A stretch of 58,096 bases of DNA from a virus (IMGVR_UViG_3300027609_000006:1-58096); one strand, 5' to 3'; numbered from the stretch's first letter, positions 898-51,966 are shown. Numbers and translations are program-made. Notes: generated by a model not told the origin, from the sequence alone.

Positions 898-1045
898 TTT
901 GTTCCGATATGAAAACGTGAAAGCCATGACTTGACGATGGGCACAGCGGAAGCTACAACCGCCTTCCGCGCGTCCCATCCTGCCGCAGCCAAGAATGGAA
1001 GATGGCTGAGTAACTTCGTGCGCAATGACGACAGCCACATATTTC

Positions 1046-1321
1046 TCATTCGACTAAGAGAGGGTTTTGATCCTTCGACAGGGATTCTGCCGCTTCCTCC
1101 ACCAATTGCCGCAAGCCGCCGATTAGCATATTCGTGGTCACGATTCCGCCGTTGCTTTCGAACTGGACTGACAAGTGCTCCCCGTCGTGACTGAATCGCA
1201 CGAATCCCATCGGGTGATCTGCCGTTCCGCGTTCCATGTCCACCGTGGCGCCGAATCCGCGCAATTGATCAGCGATCAGGGGAAGCGCGGCGGCGGGGCA
1301 TGGGAACATCACGGTCTTCAT
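1046..1321 (-). CDS. Hypothetical protein
   Basis: ORF 1046..1381 trimmed to MKTVMF. The ATG lies 8 nt after AGGGAG at the end of F-form arm 1328..1384. Confidence 0.45.
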   Translation of the reverse strand: MKTVMFPCPAAALPLIADQLRGFGATVDMERGTADHPMGFVRFSHDGEHLSVQFESNGGIVTTNMLIGGLRQLVEEAAESLSKDQNPLLVE

Positions 1322-1327
1322 CGATAT

Positions 1328-1384
1328 CTCCCTGTCGAACGGGAAAGGCCCCACCGAAGCATTTAACCACGATGAGGCCAAGCC
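1328..1384 (-). repeat. SAR arm, F-form
   Basis: Minus strand reads TTGGCCTCATCG..CCGTTCGACAGGGAG. Confidence 0.75.
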
Positions 1385-1385
1385 A

Positions 1386-1808
1386 TCAGGCAGCAGGTGC
1401 GCTGAAGTACAGAATATTCACGAACACCGGCAAGTACCCGCCAACCACGGGTCCAACGAAGTCTTGATCATTTACCGGCCCTCCAGACTGCGTTCCCTTC
1501 CCGACAGGCTCCCTGGTGTAGCCGTAGATCGTCACCCGTTCGTACATCGTTTCGTACGGATCTTCGCCCTGATAATCGATCTCTTCATCGTACGGGACGC
1601 CGGCTGCGGTGAGGCTGTTCGCGAGCGCGTCCCGCTGGTCTTGGGTAAGCTCGGTTCCGGTCTCGCCACCCGGGCGGTTATAGAAAAACGGTTGGAGCTG
1701 TGCGGAACGGCTCTGGTAATACGCTGTGTTGAATGCGGTCTGGTAATCGCTATTCGGAGGCCCCGGCGGAGGTGGGGGAGTGGGCATGGTGATTTGAGTA
1801 GGATTCAT
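1386..1808 (-). CDS. Hypothetical Pro-rich protein
   Basis: ORF 1386..1901 trimmed to MNPTQITMPTPPPPPG, downstream of an R-form arm. Confidence 0.6.
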   Translation of the reverse strand: MNPTQITMPTPPPPPGPPNSDYQTAFNTAYYQSRSAQLQPFFYNRPGGETGTELTQDQRDALANSLTAAGVPYDEEIDYQGEDPYETMYERVTIYGYTREPVGKGTQSGGPVNDQDFVGPVVGGYLPVFVNILYFSAPAA

Positions 1809-1823
1809 AGGTTTTCTTCTTTC

Positions 1824-1880
1824 TTTGGCCTCATTCGGCCTGAGTTTGCAAATCGGTTTCGGTGCGTTCGACAGTCGGAG
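1824..1880 (-). repeat. SAR arm, R-form
   Basis: Plus strand TTTGGCCTCATTCGG..GCGTTCGACAGTCGGAGG. GAGGCCAAAG sits 16 nt before ATG 1808. Confidence 0.8.
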
Positions 1881-2232
1881 GTTCGGACCCGCAATCGACA
1901 AAGGCCCAGACTACAGCCTTGAAGAGATGGTCTTTGATCCGCTGTTCTACCGGCAGCGCGTCGTATGGCACCATGCACGGATGTTCCTTTTTGTCGGGAT
2001 CCTTGATAGGCGCGAACTTCCATCCATCCCTGGTTTTGTCCGCCAACCATGCGTCATGCTGAGCAGAGGCCTCGGCTCCCGGATTGTCGATAGCGAACTT
2101 GACACCATTGATCGCGGAATCGCGCTGCCATTGGTCGGCAATCTCCCACGGCTTCTGTGAAAAGTCTCCGATGGATTCACAATATGCGCGATTCGTTTCG
2201 TGACACACCATAGCGATTTGTCGAACATCCAT
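1831..2232 (-). CDS. RyR-domain protein
   Basis: MVCHETNRAYCESIGD..PWEIADQWQRDSAINGV matches the phage RyR-domain pattern. Start lies 8 nt after the GGGAGGG of an F-form arm. Confidence 0.7.
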   Translation of the reverse strand: MDVRQIAMVCHETNRAYCESIGDFSQKPWEIADQWQRDSAINGVKFAIDNPGAEASAQHDAWLADKTRDGWKFAPIKDPDKKEHPCMVPYDALPVEQRIKDHLFKAVVWAFVDCGSEPPTVERTETDLQTQAE

Positions 2233-2240
2233 CACAAAAC

Positions 2241-2298
2241 CCTCCCATGTCGAACCCACAGCCTTAGACGCGAAGCGCTAGGCTCGGGTAGGCCAAAA
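2241..2298 (-). repeat. SAR arm, F-form
   Basis: Minus strand TTTTGGCCTACCC..GTGGGTTCGACATGGGAGGG, then TTTTGTG and ATG 2232. Confidence 0.8.
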
Positions 2299-2307
2299 CA
2301 AAAATCT

Positions 2308-2652
2308 TCAGTTCGTGATCAACCCCGAACCCTGACTCTTCAACTCCTCCAGCATCGCCTGCCGGATCGCGACTTCGCTTTTCAACTCTGCAATCGTAAC
2401 CTCGATCACAGCCCGCTCCGCCTTCTCCTGCTGCTGGTGCGTCGTGTTCCACAGCTTCACAGGTTCCGGTGTCACATCGGGCGAAGAGTGCGTGATGTAC
2501 CGCGCCAGGTAGGTCACCAGCCGCCGGGTCATGTCTGAGTGCTTCGTCAACGCCGCGAGCTTCTCCTGCTGCATACCGATCTTAGCTTCGAGCAGCTTGA
2601 TGGCGTTTTCTACTTGCAAGGGGTTTATGGGGATGGAGCGCGAAGGGTTCAT
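2308..2652 (-). CDS. Hypothetical coiled-coil protein
   Basis: ORF track. ATG is preceded by GAGGCCAAACC. Confidence 0.65.
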   Translation of the reverse strand: MNPSRSIPINPLQVENAIKLLEAKIGMQQEKLAALTKHSDMTRRLVTYLARYITHSSPDVTPEPVKLWNTTHQQQEKAERAVIEVTIAELKSEVAIRQAMLEELKSQGSGLITN

Positions 2653-2840
2653 GGTTTGGCCTCGCCGGGATTTGCGGCTCGGATTGGTACTGAAGGCTCG
2701 ACAGGGGAAACTACCTTTCGGATAAACGGATTGCGCATCGCAGGAAGAACACTATCTTTGCTTCTTTTTAAACATTTCCGCCAATTGCGCAAGAACGCCA
2801 AGTATTCCGGAGAATAGTTCGTGACGTAGATTTTGGTCAA
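2649..2840 (-). CDS. Small cassette ORF (start uncertain)
   Basis: Lies between an F-form arm (2845..2903) and an R-form arm (2653..2708). TTG start follows GGAGGGG. Ends ..NPGEAKP with an ATGA overlap. Confidence 0.35.
   Translation of the reverse strand: MTKIYVTNYSPEYLAFLRNWRKCLKRSKDSVLPAMRNPFIRKVVSPVEPSVPIRAANPGEAKP
2653..2708 (-). repeat. SAR arm, R-form
   Basis: Minus strand CCCCTGTCGAGCC..CGGCGAGGCCAAACC, then ATG 2652. Confidence 0.85.
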
Positions 2841-2844
2841 AATC

Positions 2845-2903
2845 CCCTCCTGGTCGTACGCACGATCGCACCCCGAAGCCACGGTGCCCTAAAAGGCCAA
2901 ACC
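2845..2903 (-). repeat. SAR arm, F-form
   Basis: Minus strand TGGTTTGGCCTTTTAGG..GCGTACGACCAGGAGGGG. Begins at the TGATG stop/start overlap. Confidence 0.7.
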
Positions 2904-2904
2904 A

Positions 2905-3429
2905 TCATCGCCTCCAAAACTCAAACCATCTCGGCTTAGCCCGAAGCATGATCCCCTGAGCCATCTCGAAAATGGTTGAGTTCCGCGCTTCCGCATCTGC
3001 GACATCTTCCTCGAAATGCTCTTTCATGAAGCTTCGGAACTGCGCCTGCTTCCGCTGATTCTCGATATGCGCGCGTCCGATGTCGGCCTGAATTGCGAGG
3101 GCGAGCTTGTTTGAAAACTCCGTCGAATATCCTAGCGCCAGTTCGCGGACCTGAAGGCGCACGATGCGGAATGGCTCAAGCGGTAACGCAGCGAGATCGG
3201 CAGCATGGTCTGCGGACCAATCGTCCAGTTCCTTTTCGAGGAAGTTGACTTTGTCGGCGACTTCGCCGGCGGGGAGTCCCATCACCGCCGCTGCTGCTTT
3301 CGTATCAACGTAGGAGAAGTTGTTTGATGTCATCTCCTCTTTTCCTCTCTGACCAGGTGGGAGTGAGTGCTTTTCCGGTTCGAACGGGATGCCGTCCTGG
3401 TTGGATGCTTTGGTGGTTTCTGTGCTCAT
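2905..3429 (-). CDS. Hypothetical protein
   Basis: ORF track, 174 aa. ATG preceded by GAGGCCAAACC. Confidence 0.7.
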   Translation of the reverse strand: MSTETTKASNQDGIPFEPEKHSLPPGQRGKEEMTSNNFSYVDTKAAAAVMGLPAGEVADKVNFLEKELDDWSADHAADLAALPLEPFRIVRLQVRELALGYSTEFSNKLALAIQADIGRAHIENQRKQAQFRSFMKEHFEEDVADAEARNSTIFEMAQGIMLRAKPRWFEFWRR

Positions 3430-6543: not shown

Positions 6544-7022
6544 GTCCCTACGAGCTCGAAGTAGCAGCCTACGTAGCAGCTCACAAAATCTATGCTGGGC
6601 TTCCAACGCCAGATCGTCCATGTCCCGGAGGATACCGGTCACGAATGATTGATGAGATTGCGGAAGCGATCAAACAAGCATTTTCGGTGCATTTTTCTTT
6701 GGCCTCATCGGAATCGAGTCCTTCACCTGAAGTTGAGAGCGTTCGACATTCGGAGCTTTCTATTCCGGCGGTCTATGTCGCAAATGACCGCGAGTTCTGG
6801 GATGGCATGCATGCTCTTGAACAAACCCGACACTGGCGCACCCTGCGACACGCGTTAGACATGGGCGGCGGACACGGAATCACGGATCGACCCTGCCTCA
6901 AATGCGGAATGCCGGATCGTTTCACGATGCATTTTTCGCCCACCGGTGAACCGCTCCAACCTGCCCATGTCGAACCCACAATCTCCGACGAAGCCGCGAT
7001 CCCCGGTGAGGCCAAACCATGA
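6540..7022 (+). CDS. Hypothetical protein with an in-frame internal SAR arm
   Basis: ORF track, 160 aa. F-form arm 6696..6756 is read in frame with no stop. Contains CLKCGMPDRF. Ends ..IPGEAKP. Confidence 0.55.
   Translation: MSPYELEVAAYVAAHKIYAGLPTPDRPCPGGYRSRMIDEIAEAIKQAFSVHFSLASSESSPSPEVESVRHSELSIPAVYVANDREFWDGMHALEQTRHWRTLRHALDMGGGHGITDRPCLKCGMPDRFTMHFSPTGEPLQPAHVEPTISDEAAIPGEAKP
6696..6756 (+). repeat. SAR arm, F-form (inside an ORF)
   Basis: CTTTGGCCTCATCGG..GAGCGTTCGACATTCGGAGC. Confidence 0.85.
6964..7018 (+). repeat. SAR arm, R-form
   Basis: CCCATGTCGAACCCAC..CCGGTGAGGCCAAACC, then ATG 7019 (ATGA). Confidence 0.9.
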
Positions 7023-35376: not shown

Positions 35377-36317
35377 GCCGCGGACTCGCAGACATCGTAC
35401 CCCTGAACATCCCCCCAGGAGCCGTAACCACACAAGCAGCGGGATGGTTAAACGGACCGGATGGAAACTGGTACTGGACAGGCTCCACTCCTCCCCCTTT
35501 GAATATCCCCATCACTTCCGGGCCGGGCATACCCTCAAACGCAGGTTGGGTCATTGCACCCAACGGACAACTGGTATGGACCGGCCCCGGCACTCAGCCG
35601 ACGATTCTTCCCGCGTCCGTGACGCCGCCGGGCAGCGTGATCTCCGTGCCTTCTGGTGCGCAAGGGCCGATCCTGAACTGGACGCCCCAGCCGCTGCTAC
35701 CCGATTCGATCCTTCCGCCGCCGCTACAGCGTTCGAACCCGCTGGCCGCACCTGCACAGTGGATTCCCAACAAATACGACTTCCAGATCATCGGAAGGGC
35801 CAAGAAATGGCAATGGGTCGCCGCGCACGGAGGCCTGAAGTCGTGCTGCCGTATCCCGGAGCTCGGCGCGCCAATTTACGATCTGCCGCCGTGGGAAAAG
35901 ATGCCGTCGAACAGCTTCGAATTCCAGGAAATGAATGGTTTGCCGATCGCAGATTTTCAGAGCGGTGGAATTTTCACAGGCGACGATGTCCTTATCCTAT
36001 CAATCCAGGTGCCTTCAGGTTACGACGGCGTCATCAACCGGTTCGTGGCCGGAACGACGGGAGTAACGGGCTACGCGGATTTCACGGATTCGATCAACTG
36101 GCGCCTGAAATACGGCATCCGCTATGCAAAGAACCTGGGCGATGTCGATAATACATTCGGATCGTTCAACAACGCTATCCAGGTTCCCCAGACGTATATT
36201 TGCCGGGTGATTTCCGGGCAAACAATCGAAGTTTACGCGAACGTGCCGGTGGGTTCCCCAATCGCGGGAGGCTCAATCAACGCCGGCGTTTTCGGATGGT
36301 TTTATCCGCGGCGGTAA
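35373..36317 (+). CDS. Beta-rich virion-protein candidate (314 aa)
   Basis: ORF track. Pro-rich N-terminus, then a beta-rich domain. Confidence 0.7.
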   Translation: MSRGLADIVPLNIPPGAVTTQAAGWLNGPDGNWYWTGSTPPPLNIPITSGPGIPSNAGWVIAPNGQLVWTGPGTQPTILPASVTPPGSVISVPSGAQGPILNWTPQPLLPDSILPPPLQRSNPLAAPAQWIPNKYDFQIIGRAKKWQWVAAHGGLKSCCRIPELGAPIYDLPPWEKMPSNSFEFQEMNGLPIADFQSGGIFTGDDVLILSIQVPSGYDGVINRFVAGTTGVTGYADFTDSINWRLKYGIRYAKNLGDVDNTFGSFNNAIQVPQTYICRVISGQTIEVYANVPVGSPIAGGSINAGVFGWFYPRR

Positions 36318-36343
36318 GGCCGCAAAGGAATAATGTTTATTTT

Positions 36344-36604
36344 ATGGCTATGCCCACTGACCAGCAAGTGAACAAGCTTTTCGATTTCCGGTTCAACATC
36401 ACCACCGTACTCTCCGTTTTCGCGATGCTCTGGGCGGCCGCGATGGGTATGGCGAAAATGGAGACGCAGGAAAGCCACGATAGGGACGTGAAGCGGATCG
36501 AATCCGACTACGTGCGGCGCGACGTGAACGACCTGACCGACCGCGAGCTACGGGAATGGCTTATCCGCATCGAGAAAAAGCTGGATGAGCGAAACCGAAG
36601 ATGA
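36344..36604 (+). CDS. Single-TM plus coiled-coil protein (holin- or spanin-like, speculative)
   Basis: ITTVLSVFAMLWAAAMGMA, then a charged helix. Confidence 0.5.
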   Translation: MAMPTDQQVNKLFDFRFNITTVLSVFAMLWAAAMGMAKMETQESHDRDVKRIESDYVRRDVNDLTDRELREWLIRIEKKLDERNRR

Positions 36605-36843
36605 CAGATGCCGTTCAAATTGAACTGATCCGCGCACTCGCTATCATCCCCGGATCGATTGGCGGAATTATAGCCGCATGGTTTTCATATAAGGCCGCGA
36701 CCCACGCTAAGGAAGCTGTGGATGTGGCGAAAAACGTCGAGAACAACACGAACGGCATGTCCCATGCGTTGAATGATCTCACGGCTAAGTCTTCATACGC
36801 GGCTGGGAGGCTGGATGAAAAAAACGAGGCCAACCAATTATGA
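36601..36843 (+). CDS. Small TM protein (holin-like, speculative)
   Basis: ATGA overlap with the upstream ORF. Contains ALAIIPGSIGGIIAAWFSY. Ends at GAGGCCAACCAATTATGA. Confidence 0.5.
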   Translation: MTDAVQIELIRALAIIPGSIGGIIAAWFSYKAATHAKEAVDVAKNVENNTNGMSHALNDLTAKSSYAAGRLDEKNEANQL

Positions 36844-36974
36844 GACGCATCTTTTTCGGATGCCTCTTCCTTTCTCTCTGCTGGTGCGGACGTGACGGCG
36901 TTCGCAGACAAGAGGGCGCTGTCGAGAAGTCACGAATTGACCAAGCCAAAAATCAGAGCGAGGCCAAAAAATAG
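36840..36974 (+). CDS. 44-aa putative lipoprotein (o-spanin-like, speculative)
   Basis: Hand translation MRRIFFGCLFLSLCWCGRDG..SEAKK. The stop TAG is formed at the junction with the TIR element. Confidence 0.3.
   Translation: MRRIFFGCLFLSLCWCGRDGVRRQEGAVEKSRIDQAKNQSEAKK
36915..36973 (+). repeat. SAR arm, R-form
   Basis: GGCGCTGTCGAGAAG..CAGAGCGAGGCCAAAAAATA. Its A-rich tail is the target of the TIR insertion. Confidence 0.75.
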
Positions 36975-37218
36975 GGAGTTATATATGAGTACAGGAAGGA
37001 TTAAAAATGACAAAAGAACAAATTAATAAAGCTGTGATCGGGGCTGCAAAACGCCTTTCAACTGGCAATAATGAGTACGATACCTATGGGATGGACGTTG
37101 AAATCCTACGAAAACACGCACTAGATAAGGACTTTTCATTTGTGGCTCATGCCGTGCAGCGAAAGATTCACCAAAAAAGGGCAGCGTAATCTTCCACTTA
37201 CTCATGTATATAGCTCCC
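36974..37218. mobile_element. 245-bp TIR element with 8-bp target-site duplication
   Basis: Ends are GGGAGTTATATATGAGTA and (reverse complement) GGGAGCTATATACATGAGTA. Flanked by AAAAAATA at 36966..36973 and 37219..37226. AT-rich interior. Confidence 0.75.
37007..37189 (+). CDS. 60-aa ORF carried by the TIR element
   Basis: ORF track. Function unknown. Confidence 0.4.
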   Translation: MTKEQINKAVIGAAKRLSTGNNEYDTYGMDVEILRKHALDKDFSFVAHAVQRKIHQKRAA

Positions 37219-37226
37219 AAAAAATA

Positions 37227-38378
37227 ATGCCAAGTTCCCGACTCTACACCCCGCCCCCAGGCTTCTACGATTTACCATACACCTACGCCTTCGACGCATC
37301 AACCTTGGTGAACGGGAACAGTTATCCCAACCAGCAGGTGTACATTCAGGGAGGATATGGAGACTTCGCAGTTCGGCGAGTAGTGGGGTTGAACCGGATC
37401 CTAGCCGGTAACGGAACCGGCACTTTCCAGCTAATGCGCGCCTCGCAAGGCGTCTACCAGTCCTCGAACCCGGTTCAAGCGCCGAACGCGCCCGAGCTCG
37501 CGATTGTTCCCGAAGAGTGGTATCCCGAAACCGGCCAAATCGGCTTTGACCTGTTCGGCATCGCCCTCCCATCTAACACAGCTACCGCGCAGATCGCATT
37601 CCAAGGCTCCAGAAGGCTCCCGGGCACCAGCCCCCTCATTGGATACAAGGCGGACCCCAGGACCTACACCTACATCGCGGAAGGCAACCTCACACAGGTC
37701 GCCTCACAGAACGCCCGGGTGGTCACCTACACACCCATCGACAATTACGACTTTCTGCTGTACCAACTTATGATATTTCAGGAGGCACCCGCATCGCTGG
37801 AGATCGATCAGAGCGATTCAGGATATAACATCACCCTGGTAGCGGTCGAACCTGGTCCGGCGGGCAACCAGATCAGTTTCGAAGTCACCGGAATCGGTAC
37901 CCCCAATTTGCCACTCGTGATCACAGTCGCCGGCAGCGCGATCTCCGTACAGCCGCAGACGAACGGATCCGGTTTGCCTGTTGCTTTGATGTCGGGGTTG
38001 GTCGCGCAGTTGAACGCCAATCCCGCAGTTGCCGCGCTGGTCACGATAACGACCACGACTCCGGCTGGATCCCCCTTCCTGGTATCCCCGGCTGAATTTC
38101 TCACCGGCGGCGGATTGAGTCCGATCACATCCCCGGTGTGCTCGATACAGGTCTTCGATCAGAATCAGGTGGGCATTTCAAACATACCTATTCTGGACAT
38201 CTTCTATAACGGAGCGCCCGGTACGCCTTACGAGAACGGGGCAGTGGTACCGCCGCTGATGTTCCGGCGAAACACGCTGGTGGAGATTGACTTTTACTCC
38301 CAGATCACAAACCCCGCTCTGTTGCCGCTGGGAATCGTCGTCTATCTGATCGGCCGCAAACTATATCCCTGTGGGTGA
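37227..38378 (+). CDS. Large beta-rich virion-protein candidate (383 aa, possibly two jelly-roll-like halves)
   Basis: ORF 37140..38378 trimmed to the ATG after the duplicated AAAAAATA. Function is inferred. Confidence 0.7.
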   Translation: MPSSRLYTPPPGFYDLPYTYAFDASTLVNGNSYPNQQVYIQGGYGDFAVRRVVGLNRILAGNGTGTFQLMRASQGVYQSSNPVQAPNAPELAIVPEEWYPETGQIGFDLFGIALPSNTATAQIAFQGSRRLPGTSPLIGYKADPRTYTYIAEGNLTQVASQNARVVTYTPIDNYDFLLYQLMIFQEAPASLEIDQSDSGYNITLVAVEPGPAGNQISFEVTGIGTPNLPLVITVAGSAISVQPQTNGSGLPVALMSGLVAQLNANPAVAALVTITTTTPAGSPFLVSPAEFLTGGGLSPITSPVCSIQVFDQNQVGISNIPILDIFYNGAPGTPYENGAVVPPLMFRRNTLVEIDFYSQITNPALLPLGIVVYLIGRKLYPCG

Positions 38379-38809: not shown

Positions 38810-39079
38810 TCAACCACAGGACTGCCCCGAAGACTTCGGCATATTCGAAGTGCGGACCATTTCCATGAGGTCCAGATTGTAAGCCGTGAGCTTACCCAAC
38901 CGGACATCAATGCATATTCCCGTCGCATCAAATGGATATTCGAAACCGTTCTCCAAAACACCGATTATGACTAGTTCCTCAGCCAGCGGAGGAACGCCCT
39001 TGATCCGAACCAATTCCTTCCCGCCCCGCGTCCTATACACGCATCCGATTGAGGATTCCCACGCTTTTCGATCAAGCAT
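38810..39079 (-). CDS. Hypothetical protein
   Basis: ATG follows GGAGGCCGAAGAAA. Confidence 0.55.
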   Translation of the reverse strand: MLDRKAWESSIGCVYRTRGGKELVRIKGVPPLAEELVIIGVLENGFEYPFDATGICIDVRLGKLTAYNLDLMEMVRTSNMPKSSGQSCG

Positions 39080-40133
39080 TTTCTTCGGCCTCCTTGGGAT
39101 TGAGTTTTGCAACCCGAGACTTTTCCGCCCGACCAGGAGGAGTACTGGATTGCAACCGCTGTTTAATTGTCTCCAGATCCAACATCGAATGCGGCCTCAT
39201 CGCCGGCAACTTCGTAATCTGTCGGCTAACACCATCCGGAGCCTTGCTGGAATCGTACGTCGTAATGCGCGGGAACCTTCCAGACTCCAAAACTCCCAGT
39301 TCGGGCGCCCAAATCCATCCTTCACCGGTTCGGAGGGAAGCCAGCGATCGCAGCATTTCCCTGCCCTCGTGCGGTTGTGCCCATTCCCCAATCCAATCCT
39401 CGATCGCGCGGCGGTCCTGGGGGGCGATCAGCCGCAATACGATCAGCGTTTCGGACTGAGTAATCGAATCTTTGTGGACTTTCGCCGGGCGTTGGGAAAT
39501 GAGGACAATTCGTAGGCCAATTCCACGGCCGAGACTAACCAGGTTGTTGGCAGCATCGAGCATCCGCACGCCGGCGGCATCCGATGGCCGGGCTTGCGGC
39601 ATGAACAGGTGCGCTTCGTCGATCATTAGCGTGAGTGGGCCGCGGTTCGTCCGCAGCAGAGTTTCCGCGAAATCCGCGAAGAACGTCGTGCGCTCCTTGA
39701 TGGTCATGATGCGGGTGTCTAGCACGGCGGACGTGTCGGTGGTCCCGATGATTTCGCCCAGCGCGGTGCCGTGATGGGGCAGCAGAAATACATCATCCGG
39801 CGGCCGCGCTATCGGATGAGGTAGGCCATGTTCTCGCCCAAACAGATAGATCGGGAATCCCGGCTTCTTTCCAGTCGAATCCGCTCGCAAGCCCCACCAG
39901 ACGCCCGTGGGATCGATCACGCAGAGGCGCCGGTGTTTTGCCAAGAGCAGTTCCGCGAAGCCTTTCGCTGCGTAACTTTTTCCCGAGCCAGTTTTCCCCA
40001 GAATCGCGATATGCTGCTCCAGTAGTTTCATGAACAGTGCGCGCCGCTGGATCGGATTGGCCGGATCTCCACCTTCGGTGAGTGTGGAGACGAGCTGCTG
40101 AGCTGCTCGGTGTAATGAGGAGAGGTCTTTCAT
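39072..40133 (-). CDS. FtsK/HerA-superfamily ATPase (candidate genome-packaging ATPase)
   Basis: Walker A ILGKTGSGKS. Walker B LTLMIDEAHLF. RIVLISQRP. Confidence 0.75.
   Translation of the reverse strand: MKDLSSLHRAAQQLVSTLTEGGDPANPIQRRALFMKLLEQHIAILGKTGSGKSYAAKGFAELLLAKHRRLCVIDPTGVWWGLRADSTGKKPGFPIYLFGREHGLPHPIARPPDDVFLLPHHGTALGEIIGTTDTSAVLDTRIMTIKERTTFFADFAETLLRTNRGPLTLMIDEAHLFMPQARPSDAAGVRMLDAANNLVSLGRGIGLRIVLISQRPAKVHKDSITQSETLIVLRLIAPQDRRAIEDWIGEWAQPHEGREMLRSLASLRTGEGWIWAPELGVLESGRFPRITTYDSSKAPDGVSRQITKLPAMRPHSMLDLETIKQRLQSSTPPGRAEKSRVAKLNPKEAEENA
39084..39142 (-). repeat. SAR arm, R-form
   Basis: Minus strand CTCCTCCTGGTCGGGCGG..CCAAGGAGGCCGAAG. Confidence 0.8.
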
Positions 40134-40136
40134 CCT

Positions 40137-40457
40137 TTATTTGGCCTCGCCGGAGGGTCGGGCTTCGTCGGAAGCTGCACGCTCGACATGGGCGACGATC
40201 TCCCTTTTGGCTATTTCCCGGATGAATCCTGCTTCGTCGCGCCAATGCCCCAATTCCTCACCACATCTAGCACATCGAACATCCACTTGGAATTTGTACC
40301 CGCGAAAGCGATCTACCAGAAGAGCGCCACGATGAAAACAAAAAACGGGCCATCTGAACTCTGAGCGCGCGGCGACAATTTGCACCCCGCCCCTGACGTA
40401 CCCAGCTTTAATATATTCCAAAAACTTGTCAACGGAAGGTTTCTCTGATTGGCTCAT
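40137..40457 (-). CDS. Zinc-ribbon protein inserted between the two ATPase copies
   Basis: GGGAGGA lies 3 nt before the ATG. Contains CARCGEELGH. Ends ..PSGEAK in an R arm. Confidence 0.55.
   Translation of the reverse strand: MSQSEKPSVDKFLEYIKAGYVRGGVQIVAARSEFRWPVFCFHRGALLVDRFRGYKFQVDVRCARCGEELGHWRDEAGFIREIAKREIVAHVERAASDEARPSGEAK
40138..40194 (-). repeat. SAR arm, R-form
   Basis: Minus strand GCCCATGTCGAGCGTGC..CGGCGAGGCCAAATAAAGG, then ATG 40133. Confidence 0.85.
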
Positions 40458-40825
40458 AAATCCTCCCAAGCTGCGACGAGGGTGGCCCACGCGTGCGGAT
40501 CAAGCGGAAGGTCCGCGTGCTCCCCGCCAAAAACGTAGATCGGGAAGGCTGGCCGCTTCCCGGTTTTGTCGGATCGGAGGCCCCACCAGACGCCCGTGGG
40601 GTCCAGGATGCAGACGCGCTGCTTTTTTGCGAGCAATAATTCGGCGAATCCCTTCGCAGTGAAGGTTTTCCCGCAACCTGTTTTTCCCAAAATTGCGATG
40701 TGCTGCTCCAGCAGCTTCATGAACAGCGCGCGCTGCGCGATCGGATTGGCCGGATCTCCACCTTCGGTGAGCGTGGAGACGAGCTGTTGAGCTGCTCGGT
40801 GTAATGAGGAGAGGTCGCCTTTCAT
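40454..40825 (-). CDS. Truncated paralog of the FtsK/HerA ATPase (N-terminal ~105 aa, Walker A only; possibly a pseudogene)
   Basis: MKGDLSSLHRAAQQLVSTLTEGGDPANPI..ILGKTGCGKT..DPTGVWWGL aligns with residues 1-105 of 39072..40133. The first ~90 nt are nearly identical. Confidence 0.6.
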   Translation of the reverse strand: MKGDLSSLHRAAQQLVSTLTEGGDPANPIAQRALFMKLLEQHIAILGKTGCGKTFTAKGFAELLLAKKQRVCILDPTGVWWGLRSDKTGKRPAFPIYVFGGEHADLPLDPHAWATLVAAWEDL

Positions 40826-41241
40826 GGTTTAGCCTCCGTCGGCTTGGGAGTCTTCGCGCGAGGCTTTCGCGCCCGACCAGGAGAGGTTTCTGTCTCCGTC
40901 ATCACTCCTGCCAGGAATCCATTGATCGCCCCGATCATGAACAAACAAGACGCTACTGTATGGATAATCTGAAATGTTTCACCCCACGCCTTTTCAAATC
41001 CCTCCGTCGTCAACTCCTCGCGCTCTGAGTCCACCCAGTCTACGATTATCTTGAGTACATCGTCTGCTGAGCCAATTATGTTTCGCCGGTAGTCCTTGTT
41101 TTTTTGAAGAAACTTCGCGATCCTCTTTACCACGTCTTCATCTAATTCCGCGCCGCAATAACCAGCGTCCCTTAAGGCTTGCTTGAATTCCGGCCTCTCC
41201 TCCACGACCAGGGCGAGTGGATTTCTCTGCGGTTTTTTCAC
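40822..41241 (-). CDS. Hypothetical protein (C-terminal TM)
   Basis: GTG start 3 nt after the AGGAGAAGG of an F arm. Ends ..KPTEAKP. Confidence 0.6.
   Translation of the reverse strand: MKKPQRNPLALVVEERPEFKQALRDAGYCGAELDEDVVKRIAKFLQKNKDYRRNIIGSADDVLKIIVDWVDSEREELTTEGFEKAWGETFQIIHTVASCLFMIGAINGFLAGVMTETETSPGRARKPRAKTPKPTEAKP
40826..40887 (-). repeat. SAR arm, R-form
   Basis: Minus strand CTCTCCTGGTCGGGCGCG..GCCGACGGAGGCTAAACC, then ATG 40825. Confidence 0.9.
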
Positions 41242-41900
41242 AGTCCTTCTCCTGGTCGAACGATCCCGCTCCCAGTTGCAGCACCACCCTGCGATGAGGC
41301 CAAATTACTAAGCCTTTGAATTACCAGCCACACCCCAGCCCTGGACCTCCCCATCATCTTCGCAATCTCCGTGTCTGAAAGCCCCTGGTTGTGCAGATCC
41401 ATAATCTTCAACTCCTCAATCGGCGGGCTAGACTTGGGCCTCCCTAGCCGCACACCCTTCCGCCGCGCGTTGTCCAGGCCGGCCCTGACACGCTCCACGA
41501 TCATTTCCCGCTCGAACTCCGCGAAGGCTCCAACAGTTTGAAAGAAGAACCGGCCCATCGGTGTGGTGGTGTCGATGTCCTGGGTTGCGGAGATGAAATC
41601 GATGCCCAGTGCGCGAAACAACTCCAGGGCTTCCATCAGAGATTGGAGTGATCGGGCGAACCGGTCGAACTTCCAGACCAGCACGACGTCGAAGCGCTTC
41701 TGTTTCGAATCAGCCATTAATCGCTGGTATGCGGGTGCCTGCCCGGCCTTTCGTTTGGAAACCACTCCGGTCACCTGGTCGACGTACTGATTGAAGACTT
41801 CGAAGTTGCGGCGCTGGGAGTAGTCGATCAGGGATGTGATTTGAGAATCCGCTGATTGGTCTGAGGTCGAGACGCGAGCGTAGATCGCCACTTTTTTCAT
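41238..41900 (-). CDS. Small serine recombinase (resolvase/invertase family)
   Basis: VAIYARVSTSDQ, VWKFDRFARS, C-terminal HTH GLSDTEIAKMMGRSRAGV. The last ~20 aa are F-arm translation. Confidence 0.9.
   Translation of the reverse strand: MKKVAIYARVSTSDQSADSQITSLIDYSQRRNFEVFNQYVDQVTGVVSKRKAGQAPAYQRLMADSKQKRFDVVLVWKFDRFARSLQSLMEALELFRALGIDFISATQDIDTTTPMGRFFFQTVGAFAEFEREMIVERVRAGLDNARRKGVRLGRPKSSPPIEELKIMDLHNQGLSDTEIAKMMGRSRAGVWLVIQRLSNLASSQGGAATGSGIVRPGEGL
41245..41306 (-). repeat. SAR arm, F-form
   Basis: Minus strand AATTTGGCCTCATCGCAGG..GATCGTTCGACCAGGAGAAGG. Confidence 0.9.
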
Positions 41901-42951: not shown

Positions 42952-43167
42952 TAGTCTGCCACAAAACACCAGTTTTTCAAGGTACTAAAGTACTGTTATT
43001 AAGTACCATTGTTTTCAATCCCTGAAACCGCTAGGATGCAGAGAGGTTTTATAGCAGCCACCCAATGCCCCGAAAAGACCCCTACCGCGAGTTTCTCCGC
43101 AACAAAGGGTAATTATATAGTTGACAAACTTTCAGGAATTCGCTAACCTTGGTTTCGGCGTGACAGG

Positions 43168-45931: not shown

Positions 45932-46230
45932 GGTTTGGCCTCCATCGGTTGATCGGCTTCGTGCGGCGTGCCGCGTCCGACCAGGAGGGACTTCAGTAGG
46001 TTCTCGAAGGAAACAAAAGGATGATCACACCAGTAGTCGGCGTCGTGACCAGGCCACAGTTCGGCGCGAAGGCAGAACTTCCCGTATTCGCGTTCATACC
46101 AGAAGCACGGAGGGCCGCCGTTCCTCACCACCTGCCCCCAGTCGGCGGCCTTTGCGGCTACCAGAAGTTGAACGTCTCCTGGTCGAACGCTTTCAGGTGC
46201 GGGTGTCTCGCTGCTCGATGAGGCCGACAT
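45928..46230 (-). CDS. Cassette ORF (100 aa) bounded exactly by an F arm and an R arm
   Basis: GGGAGGA lies 6 nt before ATG 46230. MSASSSS..ESVRPGD is F-arm translation and ..LLVGRGTPHEADQPMEAKP is R-arm translation. Confidence 0.55.
   Translation of the reverse strand: MSASSSSETPAPESVRPGDVQLLVAAKAADWGQVVRNGGPPCFWYEREYGKFCLRAELWPGHDADYWCDHPFVSFENLLKSLLVGRGTPHEADQPMEAKP
45932..45990 (-). repeat. SAR arm, R-form
   Basis: Minus strand CCCTCCTGGTCGGACGCGG..CCGATGGAGGCCAAACC, then ATG 45931. Confidence 0.9.
46173..46230 (-). repeat. SAR arm, F-form (translated)
   Basis: Minus strand ATGTCGGCCTCATCGAGC..AAAGCGTTCGACCAGGAGACG. Confidence 0.9.
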
Positions 46231-50140: not shown

Positions 50141-50676
50141 TTGATCATCGATTTCGCTTTGATCGAAGTAGCAGCCAATTTCTTCTGAAGCCCTCCCAGC
50201 GCGTGCCGGTCACCCATCGATAAACTCAACGGCTTCGACCCTTCCACGCTGTGCGCCAACTTCACAGCCGTCGGCGAATTGATCTGAGACAGGAACAACT
50301 GCACCGCCGACGCGATCGCGTTCACTAGCGCCTGCACTTCCGGCCCCACGGTTGGACCCAGCGCGGGAACGGCGACATCCGCGAAGTAACCGATGATCTT
50401 CGTGTCCATCACGGAAACTGGATCTTTCGTCAGCAGCTCCGCGGCCGATTGAGATGCTGCCGTGCTCACGGCGCCCGTGTACGCCAGAATAATGTTGCCG
50501 ATTCCAGAGGGTAGAATTCCCGATGCTTCGACAATTGGGACGGCTACGGTTGCCGCAGTGCACGCGTCGGAAAGGACGGTCAAATCGGTGGAGAGTTGAG
50601 AAGTGGAGCAGGCTGAGAGGATCAGGACTGCTACGAAGATGAGGGAAAGCAGAAAGATCGTGATTGTGTTTTTCAT
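50134..50676 (-). CDS. Putative lipoprotein
   Basis: MKNTITIFLLSLIFVAVLILSAC (lipobox-like LSAC). Confidence 0.6.
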   Translation of the reverse strand: MKNTITIFLLSLIFVAVLILSACSTSQLSTDLTVLSDACTAATVAVPIVEASGILPSGIGNIILAYTGAVSTAASQSAAELLTKDPVSVMDTKIIGYFADVAVPALGPTVGPEVQALVNAIASAVQLFLSQINSPTAVKLAHSVEGSKPLSLSMGDRHALGGLQKKLAATSIKAKSMIKP

Positions 50677-50683
50677 TTGGTAA

Positions 50684-51712
50684 TTATATACATGAGTCCC
50701 GTGACATTGTGGTTTCAACGACTTCCCCTCTCAGTTCTGAAAATAACGAAGCGCGCAGGCAGTACGGGCTAAACCAGATTCTTTCCCGCGTCGAGTTCTC
50801 CCGCGCCGCGTTATCGCCCTGAGAGCCGTATCCGCCGCGCGCCTTCCACGGGATGCACTCCCAGGAAGTCGGCATGGCGTGCTCACCTTCGTAGCCGCAC
50901 AGCGCGATTCTGGCGCGGGAATCGTTACCCATTTCAATCGCCCACTCCCGGACGGCGTGTGCCACGTCTCCGCTGTCCTGCGAATAGAGGTCACTGGTCC
51001 GTTCGGCTTCGTCTGCGTAAGGCGGATCGAGGAAGACACCCGTAATGCCATGCTTGACCGTCACCGAAGGGCCGCACACCCGCTGCCAATCTCCGCAGCA
51101 TACCCTTACGCTCCGCAGCCGCTCGGCCAAGTCGCGCATATAGGCCAGCAATTGGCCGCGCCGCGTCCCCGAGGTGAGGTCGCTGGCGATGTCGCCCGTG
51201 CCCGCGTCCCCGAGGTGAGGTAGCTGGCGGTTTAGCCCTTTGCCCGCGTCCCCGAGGTGAGGTAGCTTACGATGTACGCCCGTGCCCGCGTTCCCGAGGT
51301 GAGGTAGCTGCTTCGCGCACCACCCGGCTCCGATCCAAATGCACTGTCCCCATACCCACCATCCTGCAATTTTGACATCATAAAACTCCGGGTCTACTTT
51401 CATTCGTTCGCGAAACTCAGCCTGCGAACAGAGCCATAAATGCCGGGCGTGTTGATCGGCTTCGTTCACCGGGTTGTCCGCGTGCTCTGCGACCGCCTCC
51501 GGTTCATGCTGGAGCGCCCGCCAGAAGTTCGCCACCAGACAATCGAGGTCGTTTATCGTCTCCGTGGACGGCGCGTGTGGACGATTCAGGAGCACCGCGC
51601 CGGAGCCAAAGAACGGCTCGACGTAGTTCTGAACATTGCCGAATCTCTCCCAGACCAATTCGGCAACACTCGACTTGCCCCCGAACCACGGAAATGGAGG
51701 TTTTAGGCTCAT
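50684..51712 (-). CDS. Dam-like (D12 class) N6-adenine DNA methyltransferase
   Basis: FPWFGGKS, EPFFGSGAV, FLDPPY. Has an internal 13-aa tandem repeat LPHLG(D/N)AG.G. The stop lies inside the left TIR. Confidence 0.85.
   Translation of the reverse strand: MSLKPPFPWFGGKSSVAELVWERFGNVQNYVEPFFGSGAVLLNRPHAPSTETINDLDCLVANFWRALQHEPEAVAEHADNPVNEADQHARHLWLCSQAEFRERMKVDPEFYDVKIAGWWVWGQCIWIGAGWCAKQLPHLGNAGTGVHRKLPHLGDAGKGLNRQLPHLGDAGTGDIASDLTSGTRRGQLLAYMRDLAERLRSVRVCCGDWQRVCGPSVTVKHGITGVFLDPPYADEAERTSDLYSQDSGDVAHAVREWAIEMGNDSRARIALCGYEGEHAMPTSWECIPWKARGGYGSQGDNAARENSTRERIWFSPYCLRASLFSELRGEVVETTMSRDSCI
51158..51312. repeat. 39-40-bp tandem repeat (3 good copies plus 1 degenerate) inside the MTase gene
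   Basis: Unit TGCCCGCGTCCCCGAGGTGAGGTAGCT plus a ~12-nt variable part. Confidence 0.75.
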
Positions 51713-51747
51713 TTTTTATCCACGGGACTCATGTATATAATTACCTT

Positions 51748-51966
51748 TCATTTTGAATCGGCCTCCGTCGGCTTTGTGGCTTCGTGCGGCGTGTCTCGCC
51801 CGACCATGAGGGAATCTTTTTGGGCTTTGAGGAAAGCCACTCCTTCCTCAGCAGTGTAGGGGCACCGGGTAGAGCCGAAGTGGATTCCTCCACAATTAGG
51901 ACAGTCCCCCACCTGGTGGAACGCATTCGACGCCGCGCGAAGAGTCGATCCCGATGAGGCCAACAT
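51748..51966 (-). CDS. Cassette ORF, zinc-ribbon protein
   Basis: MLASSGS..FHQVGD is F-arm translation. Contains CPNCGG..TRC. C-terminus ..MVGRDTPHEATKPTEADSK is R-arm translation. Confidence 0.5.
   Translation of the reverse strand: MLASSGSTLRAASNAFHQVGDCPNCGGIHFGSTRCPYTAEEGVAFLKAQKDSLMVGRDTPHEATKPTEADSK
51755..51815 (-). repeat. SAR arm, R-form
   Basis: Minus strand GATTCCCTCATGGTCGGGCGAG..GCCGACGGAGGCCGATTC. Its tail AAAATGAAA is the TIR target. Confidence 0.85.
51906..51966 (-). repeat. SAR arm, F-form (translated)
   Basis: Minus strand ATGTTGGCCTCATCGGGATCG..AATGCGTTCCACCAGGTGGGGG. Confidence 0.85.

Follow-up and report, generated by a model that had tools for sequence, protein, structure and literature searches.

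The stretch of DNA that we analyzed (58,096 nt, hereafter the window) is identical to ENA contig ERZ27256169 k141_703367, and the overlap of about 60 nt between its two ends marks it as a circularly assembled replicon. The replicon encodes HerA/FtsK-type ATPases, a serine resolvase, glycosyltransferases, and a Dam-like methyltransferase; no DDE transposase was found in it. We identified no close DNA relatives among GenBank phages and recognized no tailed-phage hallmark genes in the window, weak PHROG labels aside. It seems to be a tailless virus of 58 kb, from a soil group that is little described. The locus of interest is a plus-strand operon, where a short segment, which we call E1, lies between a 44-aa ORF and a gene encoding a 383-aa protein (Table 1). 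The latter has 46 homologues and an AlphaFold model with a pLDDT of 86, whose best PDB folds, all weak, are mostly double-jelly-roll capsids (iridovirus, vaccinia D13, PBCV-1, PRD1, and STIV) but also include the two-jelly-roll enzyme peptidylglycine monooxygenase; matches in a viral structure library were mixed. Because the matches are mostly to double-jelly-roll folds and yet weak and mixed, we treat this gene, with moderate confidence, as that of the probable major capsid protein of a tailless virus. Two HerA/FtsK-type (DUF87) ATPases are encoded nearby (39072-40825 region).

E1 can be read directly from the sequence as a 245-bp segment with imperfect terminal inverted repeats and an exact 8-bp duplication. 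Its ends agree with the 19-nt terminus of a family described below (GGGAATTATATACATGAGT) at 16 to 17 positions, i.e., with two or three differences per end. In the alignment, the left repeat has one substitution and lacks 2 nt of the conserved core, and the right one has two substitutions. A preliminary description of this DNA had correctly given the duplication with its coordinates, the length, and the 60-aa ORF, as well as a solo look-alike of the ends at 43107. In the alignment, the gap in the left arm is one of 2 nt (CA) and not of 1, and the arms are 18 and 20 nt long. The GC content drops by 15 points inside the element (41% versus 56% genome-wide), and the distance between the 60-aa ORF and the ends of the element is 33 nt on one side and 29 nt on the other, with no spare spacer. 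E1 is single-copy in the window. The 14-mer core of the ends, with up to two mismatches, occurs 3 times there, against 0.04 expected, and two of the 4 occurrences of the duplicated 8-mer in 58 kb are those flanking E1. A chance origin of the repeats and the duplication is excluded. As the left repeat has lost 2 nt, E1 is probably immobile.

Table 1. Coordinates of the E1 locus, of the sister element E2, and of a solo end in the window
Feature	Position	Strand	Remarks
44-aa ORF upstream of E1	36840..36974	+	Stop codon TAG now, TAA in the reconstructed empty site
GAGGCC upstream of E1	36960-36965	+	Read from sequence
Left copy of the 8-bp target-site duplication, AAAAAATA	36966..36973		Read from sequence; fits the AT-rich target profile of the family
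E1	36974-37218		245 bp
Left terminal inverted repeat, GGGAGTTATATATGAGTA	36974..36991	+	18 nt; sequence and alignment to the family terminus
Shine-Dalgarno-like AGGAAGG	36993..36999	+	7 nt ahead of the passenger ATG; read from sequence
Passenger gene, 60-aa ORF	37007..37189	+	ORF call; same orientation as the surrounding operon
Right terminal inverted repeat, TACTCATGTATATAGCTCCC	37199..37218	-	20 nt; reverse complement GGGAGCTATATACATGAGTA
Right copy of the 8-bp target-site duplication, AAAAAATA	37219..37226		Read from sequence
383-aa gene, probable double-jelly-roll major capsid protein	37227..38378	+	Homologues and AlphaFold model
Solo decayed end, GGGTAATTATATAGTTGACAAAC	43107..43130	+	Like the transposase-proximal end (GGGAATTATATACATGAGTATAGTTGACAAC) in full elements, but with 10 nt deleted
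8-bp duplication of E2, TTTCATTT	50671-50678 and 51746-51753		Differs from that of E1
E2, perfect 25-nt inverted repeats GGTAATTATATACATGAGTCCCGTG	50679..51745		1067 bp; no transposase
Dam-like D12 methyltransferase, sole cargo of E2	50684-51712	-	Pfam D12 match

The first G of the left repeat turns the TAA of the 44-aa ORF into TAG, so that the length of this ORF is kept. The capsid-like gene now lies 245 bp from its own GAGGCC ribosome-binding motif and is directly preceded by TATATAGCTCCCAAAAAATA. Removal of E1 and of one copy of the duplication gives GAGGCCAAAAAATAATG, with a TAATG stop/start overlap, in agreement with the normal R-arm-to-ATG junction that the preliminary description had expected from excision. 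The reconstructed empty site is GAGGCCAAAAAATAATGCC, and its junction, GAGGCCAAAAAATA-ATG, has the same design as those of relatives. Six related contigs, with capsid-like proteins 49-69% identical to that of the window, have an uninterrupted GAGGCC, an A-rich spacer of 5-8 nt, and an ATG ahead of the capsid-like gene. The uninterrupted junctions read GAGGCCAAA(C/T)CATA-ATG in L139-L143 (GATGAGGCCAAACCATA-ATG in L139-L140 and GATGAGGCCAAATCATA-ATG in L141-L143) and GAGGCCAAAACAAA-ATG in L063; that of L144 reads GAGGCCAAACC-ATG, and upstream of it the L144 sequence can be aligned with the 3' portion of the 44-aa ORF. The preliminary description had allowed that the flanking 8-mers could be a low-complexity coincidence, with the element standing at the same place between different flanks in relatives. 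Since these relatives have an uninterrupted junction and lack the whole segment, its account of the flanks as a duplication holds. E1 is a real transposon insertion.

Among near-identical genomes we found no empty site. All near-identical copies of the virus carry E1 with the same flanks, which implies that it is fixed in the lineage. The element was seen at this one locus only, with the same neighbors in 9 contigs encoding an identical 60-aa protein and in 7 encoding an identical capsid protein. The exception is a variant (L003/L147; JGI 3300076650 Ga0643766_0017134), whose positions 1-1338 are 98.95% identical to 35855-37192 of the window. It leaves this homology 3 nt past the stop codon of the 60-aa ORF and continues into phage-like DNA unrelated to the window, which encodes a PKD-domain protein of 1124 aa, DUF3310, and ThyX; a further solo terminus, AGGAATTATATACATGAGT, is found in direct orientation (L147:4728-4746). 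Either the variant arose by recombination at the element or its assembly is chimeric. E1 itself, judging from its decayed ends and its uniform presence, is most likely an immobile fossil fixed in the virus lineage.

The ends of E1 belong to a widespread family. An exact-match scan with GGKARYTATATACATGAGT of viral contigs and of bacterial and archaeal genomes matched 58 viral-contig stretches and 66 genome stretches, nearly all of which read the 19-nt terminus followed by variable sequence. When ends were paired at three mismatches or fewer, they delimited 52 elements of 0.4-4.8 kb (0.4-2.9 kb for those with good duplications). Perfect 8-bp duplications flank 33 of these 52 pairs, and 6 more have a single mismatch. 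The same termini thus bound many 8-bp-duplicated elements elsewhere, which bears out the earlier view of E1 as the second member of one terminal-inverted-repeat family in this virus. Among the 40 elements examined, 15 encode a full-length transposase (289-320 aa), 4 more have truncated transposases in otherwise intact elements (L070, L092, L100, and L109), and 21 have no transposase match, with one passenger ORF in each of those inspected. The transposase matches Pfam DDE_Tnp_IS1595 (1.4e-41) and Zn_ribbon_IS1595, as well as the NCBIfam model "IS1595 family transposase" (198 bits versus a cut-off of 75). At least 7,985 protein clusters are similar to it at an E value of 1e-30 or lower; the names given to the transposases in the source go no further than "transposase-like protein." Most full copies carry a passenger gene beside the transposase, e.g., one for a PAPS-reductase-like protein or, in L048, for a protein of 135 aa. 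Single-ORF cassettes with the same ends include L023 (454 bp, 130 aa), L029 (421 bp), L037 (457 bp), L038 (637 bp), L049 (467 bp), and L135 (769 bp, with a C5 methyltransferase), and E1 is the smallest element found among those of this terminus.

The terminus family spans many phyla, and the same subterminal sequence types occur in full copies of Terriglobia, Bryobacterales, and other Acidobacteriota and in viral contigs. This common IS lineage is a weak hint, drawn from the shared ends, that the host could belong to the Acidobacteriota. Neither the GenBank phages nor the PLSDB plasmids contain the exact terminus; BLAST against these collections gave chance matches in AT-rich genomes only. The inverted repeats near the closest IS1595 transposases of cultured plasmids (from Methylocystis and Entomospira, at most 43% identical) do not resemble it. 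A metagenome scan for the GGGAG end variant of E1 returned two unrelated AT-rich contigs only, and no homologue of the cargo of E1 or E2 was found in other terminus-bearing loci.

How should such an element be classed? The sequence GGGAATTAT fits the end consensus "ggnnatTAT" of the ISNwi1 subgroup of IS1595, which has 8-bp direct repeats and variants with passenger genes, and the lineage may belong to this subgroup. E1 has the terminal repeat type and the 8-bp duplication of an IS1595 derivative, with GG-starting repeats and termini common to elements encoding Zn-ribbon and DDE_Tnp_IS1595 proteins; it differs in being only 245 bp long, in its decayed ends, and in encoding no such transposase, as an autonomous member would. 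The transposases of this lineage are themselves distant from those closest to them on cultured plasmids (see above). Elements of the IS1595 family usually produce 8-bp duplications and encode a zinc-finger and DDE transposase (PMC8101967), and the forms with passenger genes are termed "transporter IS" (Siguier, Gagnevin & Chandler 2009, cited in PMC3129680). When the inverted repeats of an IS and direct repeats surround one or more passenger genes with no transposase, the element is a mobile insertion cassette (MIC) (PMC3129680); examples are MIC231, derived from IS231 of Bacillus cereus (De Palmenaer et al. 2004, cited in PMC3129680), and MICs carrying qnr (PMC3913671). E1 has precisely this architecture: IS-type repeats and direct repeats around a passenger unrelated to transposition, no transposase, and presumed mobilization in trans. 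It differs from MIC231 in deriving from IS1595 rather than IS4/IS231, in its place immediately before a probable capsid gene of a virus-like replicon, and in its cargo, a 60-aa protein of no described family.

Like miniature inverted-repeat elements (MITEs), E1 is small, ends in inverted repeats, is flanked by a target duplication, and depends on a transposase in trans, but MITEs are typically non-coding and multi-copy, whereas E1 encodes a conserved protein and is single-copy in the genome. Among phages, the ultra-small mycobacteriophage mobile elements MPME1 and MPME2 have short inverted repeats, are intergenic, and were revealed as insertions by their presence or absence among related phages. 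In contrast to E1, they have their own putative transposase ORF and unrelated ends, with no known link to IS1595. We searched the window for an IS1595 transposase and obtained no Pfam match among its 70 ORFs, and a six-frame search with a family profile for a transposase remnant gave a best E value of 0.25. Any movement of the element thus needed a transposase in trans. Since, in addition, the only ORF of E1 has no family match, the element is a non-autonomous derivative and not an IS. Taken together, E1 is very probably a decayed mobile insertion cassette of the IS1595 lineage with these ends.

The window contains a second insertion of the same family, E2, whose duplication includes the ATG (50674-50676) of the flanking minus-strand lipoprotein-like gene, so that the insertion of E2 duplicated a start codon. 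E2 parts this gene from its GAGGCC, and on the minus strand the TATAAT of E2 ends 7 nt ahead of the duplicated ATG. The core TTATATACATGAGT, described previously as shared by the two elements, is exact in E2 and only approximate in E1, where the right arm has one mismatch and the left arm the 2-nt gap. In both E1 and E2, the passenger ORF begins exactly 33 nt in from one end of the element. The distance is different in other cassettes, and its identity here is probably a coincidence. Only residues 9-83 of the E2 methyltransferase match Pfam D12, and its ORF includes, at 51161-51310, a tandem repeat of 42 nt (14 codons; 3.6 copies, 86% identity) of the QLPHLGDAGTG type. A scan of viral sequences for the extended repeat of E2 found nothing. 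The solo end lies about 1.2 kb beyond the resolvase gene (41238-41900). In the related virus L063, two termini and a truncated C terminus of an IS1595 transposase (1039-3292) are found about 1.5-3.8 kb from a resolvase homologue. By their positions, the solo end and the remnants of L063 point to an old invasion of the resolvase region in this virus group.

What does E1 carry? Homologues of the 60-aa protein, 65-71% identical, are encoded in tightly packed operons of other phage-like soil contigs that have no such terminus. The gene has a dN of about 0.24 with saturated synonymous sites and is therefore a real gene under constraint. The protein has no match in Pfam, PHROG, or NCBIfam, and a profile search of 1.8 billion representative proteins returned only 7 matches to its family, two of which were multi-stretch matches to very long proteins. 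A pattern scan of IMG/VR found no relatives of the 60-aa ORF or of the capsid-like protein. The structure model is predicted to be all-helical, with a pLDDT of 59, too poor for a fold search. The gene is presumably transcribed as part of the plus-strand operon around it, with its own AGGAAGG as the site from which translation would start.

The motif that both insertions adjoin is a recurrent feature of this genome and specific to this virus group. GAGGCC occurs in 39 copies per strand, against about 22 expected in the window, and 30 of the 78 copies are followed by a start codon 2-12 nt downstream, with a modal spacing of 5 nt. Genome-wide, the start-associated form is (C)CGNNGAGGCCAAANN-ATG, e.g., at 7008, 20007, 21377, and 33274 and, on the minus strand, at 45942 and 57069; this is what the preliminary description called "SAR" or "R arm." GAGGCC is embedded in intergenic repeats of about 60 nt with a mutual match of 77-84%. 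Both insertions lie 0-6 nt from a GAGGCC and beside a start codon. The outward-facing ends of E1 and E2 include TATAAT- or TATATA-like hexamers. A check of the ends for promoter activity had been suggested earlier, and a simple sigma-70 consensus scan found no promoter at those of E1 or E2; the full element in L018 is the only place where a strong one (TTGACA, 17 nt, TACAAT) was seen, at its transposase-proximal subterminus. Given the hexamers, outward transcription or initiation independent of a Shine-Dalgarno sequence may occur at the ends of both elements.

These observations are consistent with the following history. An IS1595-type DDE transposase, provided in trans by the host cell or by a co-resident element, would have bound both ends and inserted the cassette. 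For insertion, an AT-rich 8-mer would have been cut with a stagger of 8 bp; both the target profile and the duplication are observed, and the chemistry is presumed from the family. In this replicon of 56% GC, AT-rich 8-mers are concentrated in the A-rich spacer between GAGGCC and start codons, and insertions within genes would have been lost. E1 would thereby have come to lie behind the 44-aa ORF and ahead of the probable capsid gene, and E2 at an equivalent junction. The cargo is a small conserved phage gene with its own Shine-Dalgarno-like sequence, presumably co-transcribed with the operon. Later, the loss of 2 nt of the conserved core in the left repeat and substitutions in both ends would have made E1 a fossil.

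Several other readings deserve consideration. The flanks of E1 are A-rich and of low complexity, its arms contain TATA-like sequence, and it is intergenic within an operon, so the repeats could be taken for a native regulatory feature, such as a stem-loop, an operator, or divergent promoters, and the 8-mers for a coincidence. We give this practically no credence, and it is effectively refuted. In unrelated genomes, elements that encode a transposase and have 8-bp duplications end in these same termini, and relatives lack the whole segment. The drop in GC inside E1, the absence of a sigma-70-type promoter at its ends in our scan, and the occurrence of the 8-mer only four times in the window also weigh against it. 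A more serious alternative, which we nevertheless consider rather unlikely, is that a full transporter IS with both a transposase and the 60-aa passenger was inserted and then lost the transposase by internal deletion, so that the 245-bp form itself would never have moved. There are indeed full elements that combine a transposase with a small passenger (L048), truncated transposases occur inside the four otherwise intact elements mentioned above, and E1 is known from a single locus. But neither E1 nor the window retains a trace of a transposase, and the ORF fills the element with no leftover spacer. Furthermore, there are many independent single-ORF cassettes with perfect duplications, so cassettes as such seem to transpose or at least to persist. 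E1 may thus have arrived as a 245-bp cassette or, less probably, have been cut down in place from a larger element.

The position of the two insertions raises the additional possibility that the transposition machinery is dedicated to the start-associated GAGGCC junction. In its favor, both insertions of the window are at such junctions, which adjoin only 8% of all AT-rich 8-mers in the genome. However, the composition of the family flanks reveals an 8-bp AT-rich window alone: across 124 unique flanks, A+T makes up 79% of the 8 bases adjoining the end and 46% of those beyond, and the composition returns to background exactly at position 9, with a profile of roughly HWWNNWWD that both AAAAAATA and TTTCATTT match. 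There is no enrichment of start codons that open outward within 16 nt (9 of the 124 flanks, 7.3%, versus 5.7% at random control positions), and start-codon targeting is statistically rejected. In the reconstructed pre-insertion genome, 8-mers with at least seven A/T begin at 1.6% of positions; excluding the element intervals, there are 904 such sites. Of the 195 that are non-coding, 48 (25%) sit 0-5 nt past a GAGGCC. With a quarter of the non-coding candidates right after this motif, finding two of two insertions at GAGGCC junctions has a p of about 0.06 under AT-rich targeting and loss of disruptive insertions. Moreover, the motif is confined to this virus group, whereas the transposon family is found in many phyla. 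We therefore judge dedicated targeting improbable: the choice of AT-rich targets, together with the loss of gene-disrupting insertions, suffices to explain both sites. The preliminary description had proposed either target preference for the SAR junction or selection for polar-neutral sites. Of these two, a dedicated preference for the junction is unneeded.

The terminus also bounds cargo of another kind. Many of its copies in genomes contain a TnpB-like gene (Pfam OrfB_IS605 and Cas12f1-like_TNB) and no IS1595 transposase, e.g., L107:4043-5924, L093:2372-4200, and L104:5339-7463 (Cenarchaeum MAG OZ242221.1), as well as L108, L074, L086, L112, L118, L133, L041, and L051. One archaeal MAG contains three copies, each flanked by a different perfect 8-bp duplication and encoding a TnpB about 67% identical to that of L107. 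The presence of TnpB inside IS1595-type ends in bacteria and archaea suggests that it travels as cargo, and from these ends TnpB appears to be carried by DDE-type cassettes in both domains. Our literature search found no paper describing a link of this kind between IS1595 and TnpB.

One could go further and propose that the 19-nt IS1595-type terminus defines a widespread shuttle of single-gene cassettes in soil viruses and their hosts, whose outward end (…CATGTATATAATTCCC and the A-rich duplication) supplies a -10-like element and an unstructured leader. This is a speculative extension, and we think it is probably wrong in this full form. If it were true, cassettes with methyltransferases, TnpB, or small ORFs would be moved in trans among viruses, bacteria, and archaea and could be placed between a ribosome-binding site and a start codon, here that of the capsid gene, without silencing it. 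Likewise, the TATAAT of E2 would then give a leaderless mRNA starting close to the duplicated ATG.

The identification of E1 as a true insertion of a known element kind turns an anonymous inverted repeat into a named, annotatable mobile element, and it accounts as well for the methyltransferase element E2 and for the solo end at 43107. The IS family is also present in several IMG/VR contigs of 57-64 kb; of the contigs with this family, only L063 (24.9 kb) is shown to be a relative. The finding shows that this group of soil viruses of about 60 kb, with a probable double-jelly-roll capsid protein and HerA/FtsK-type ATPases, has been invaded repeatedly by one IS1595 lineage. This lineage often travels in the form of single-gene cassettes, through which viruses could acquire methyltransferases and small accessory genes. 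Finally, both insertions sever a gene from its GAGGCC ribosome-binding motif and yet persist across samples, which raises the question of how translation is initiated in these viruses.
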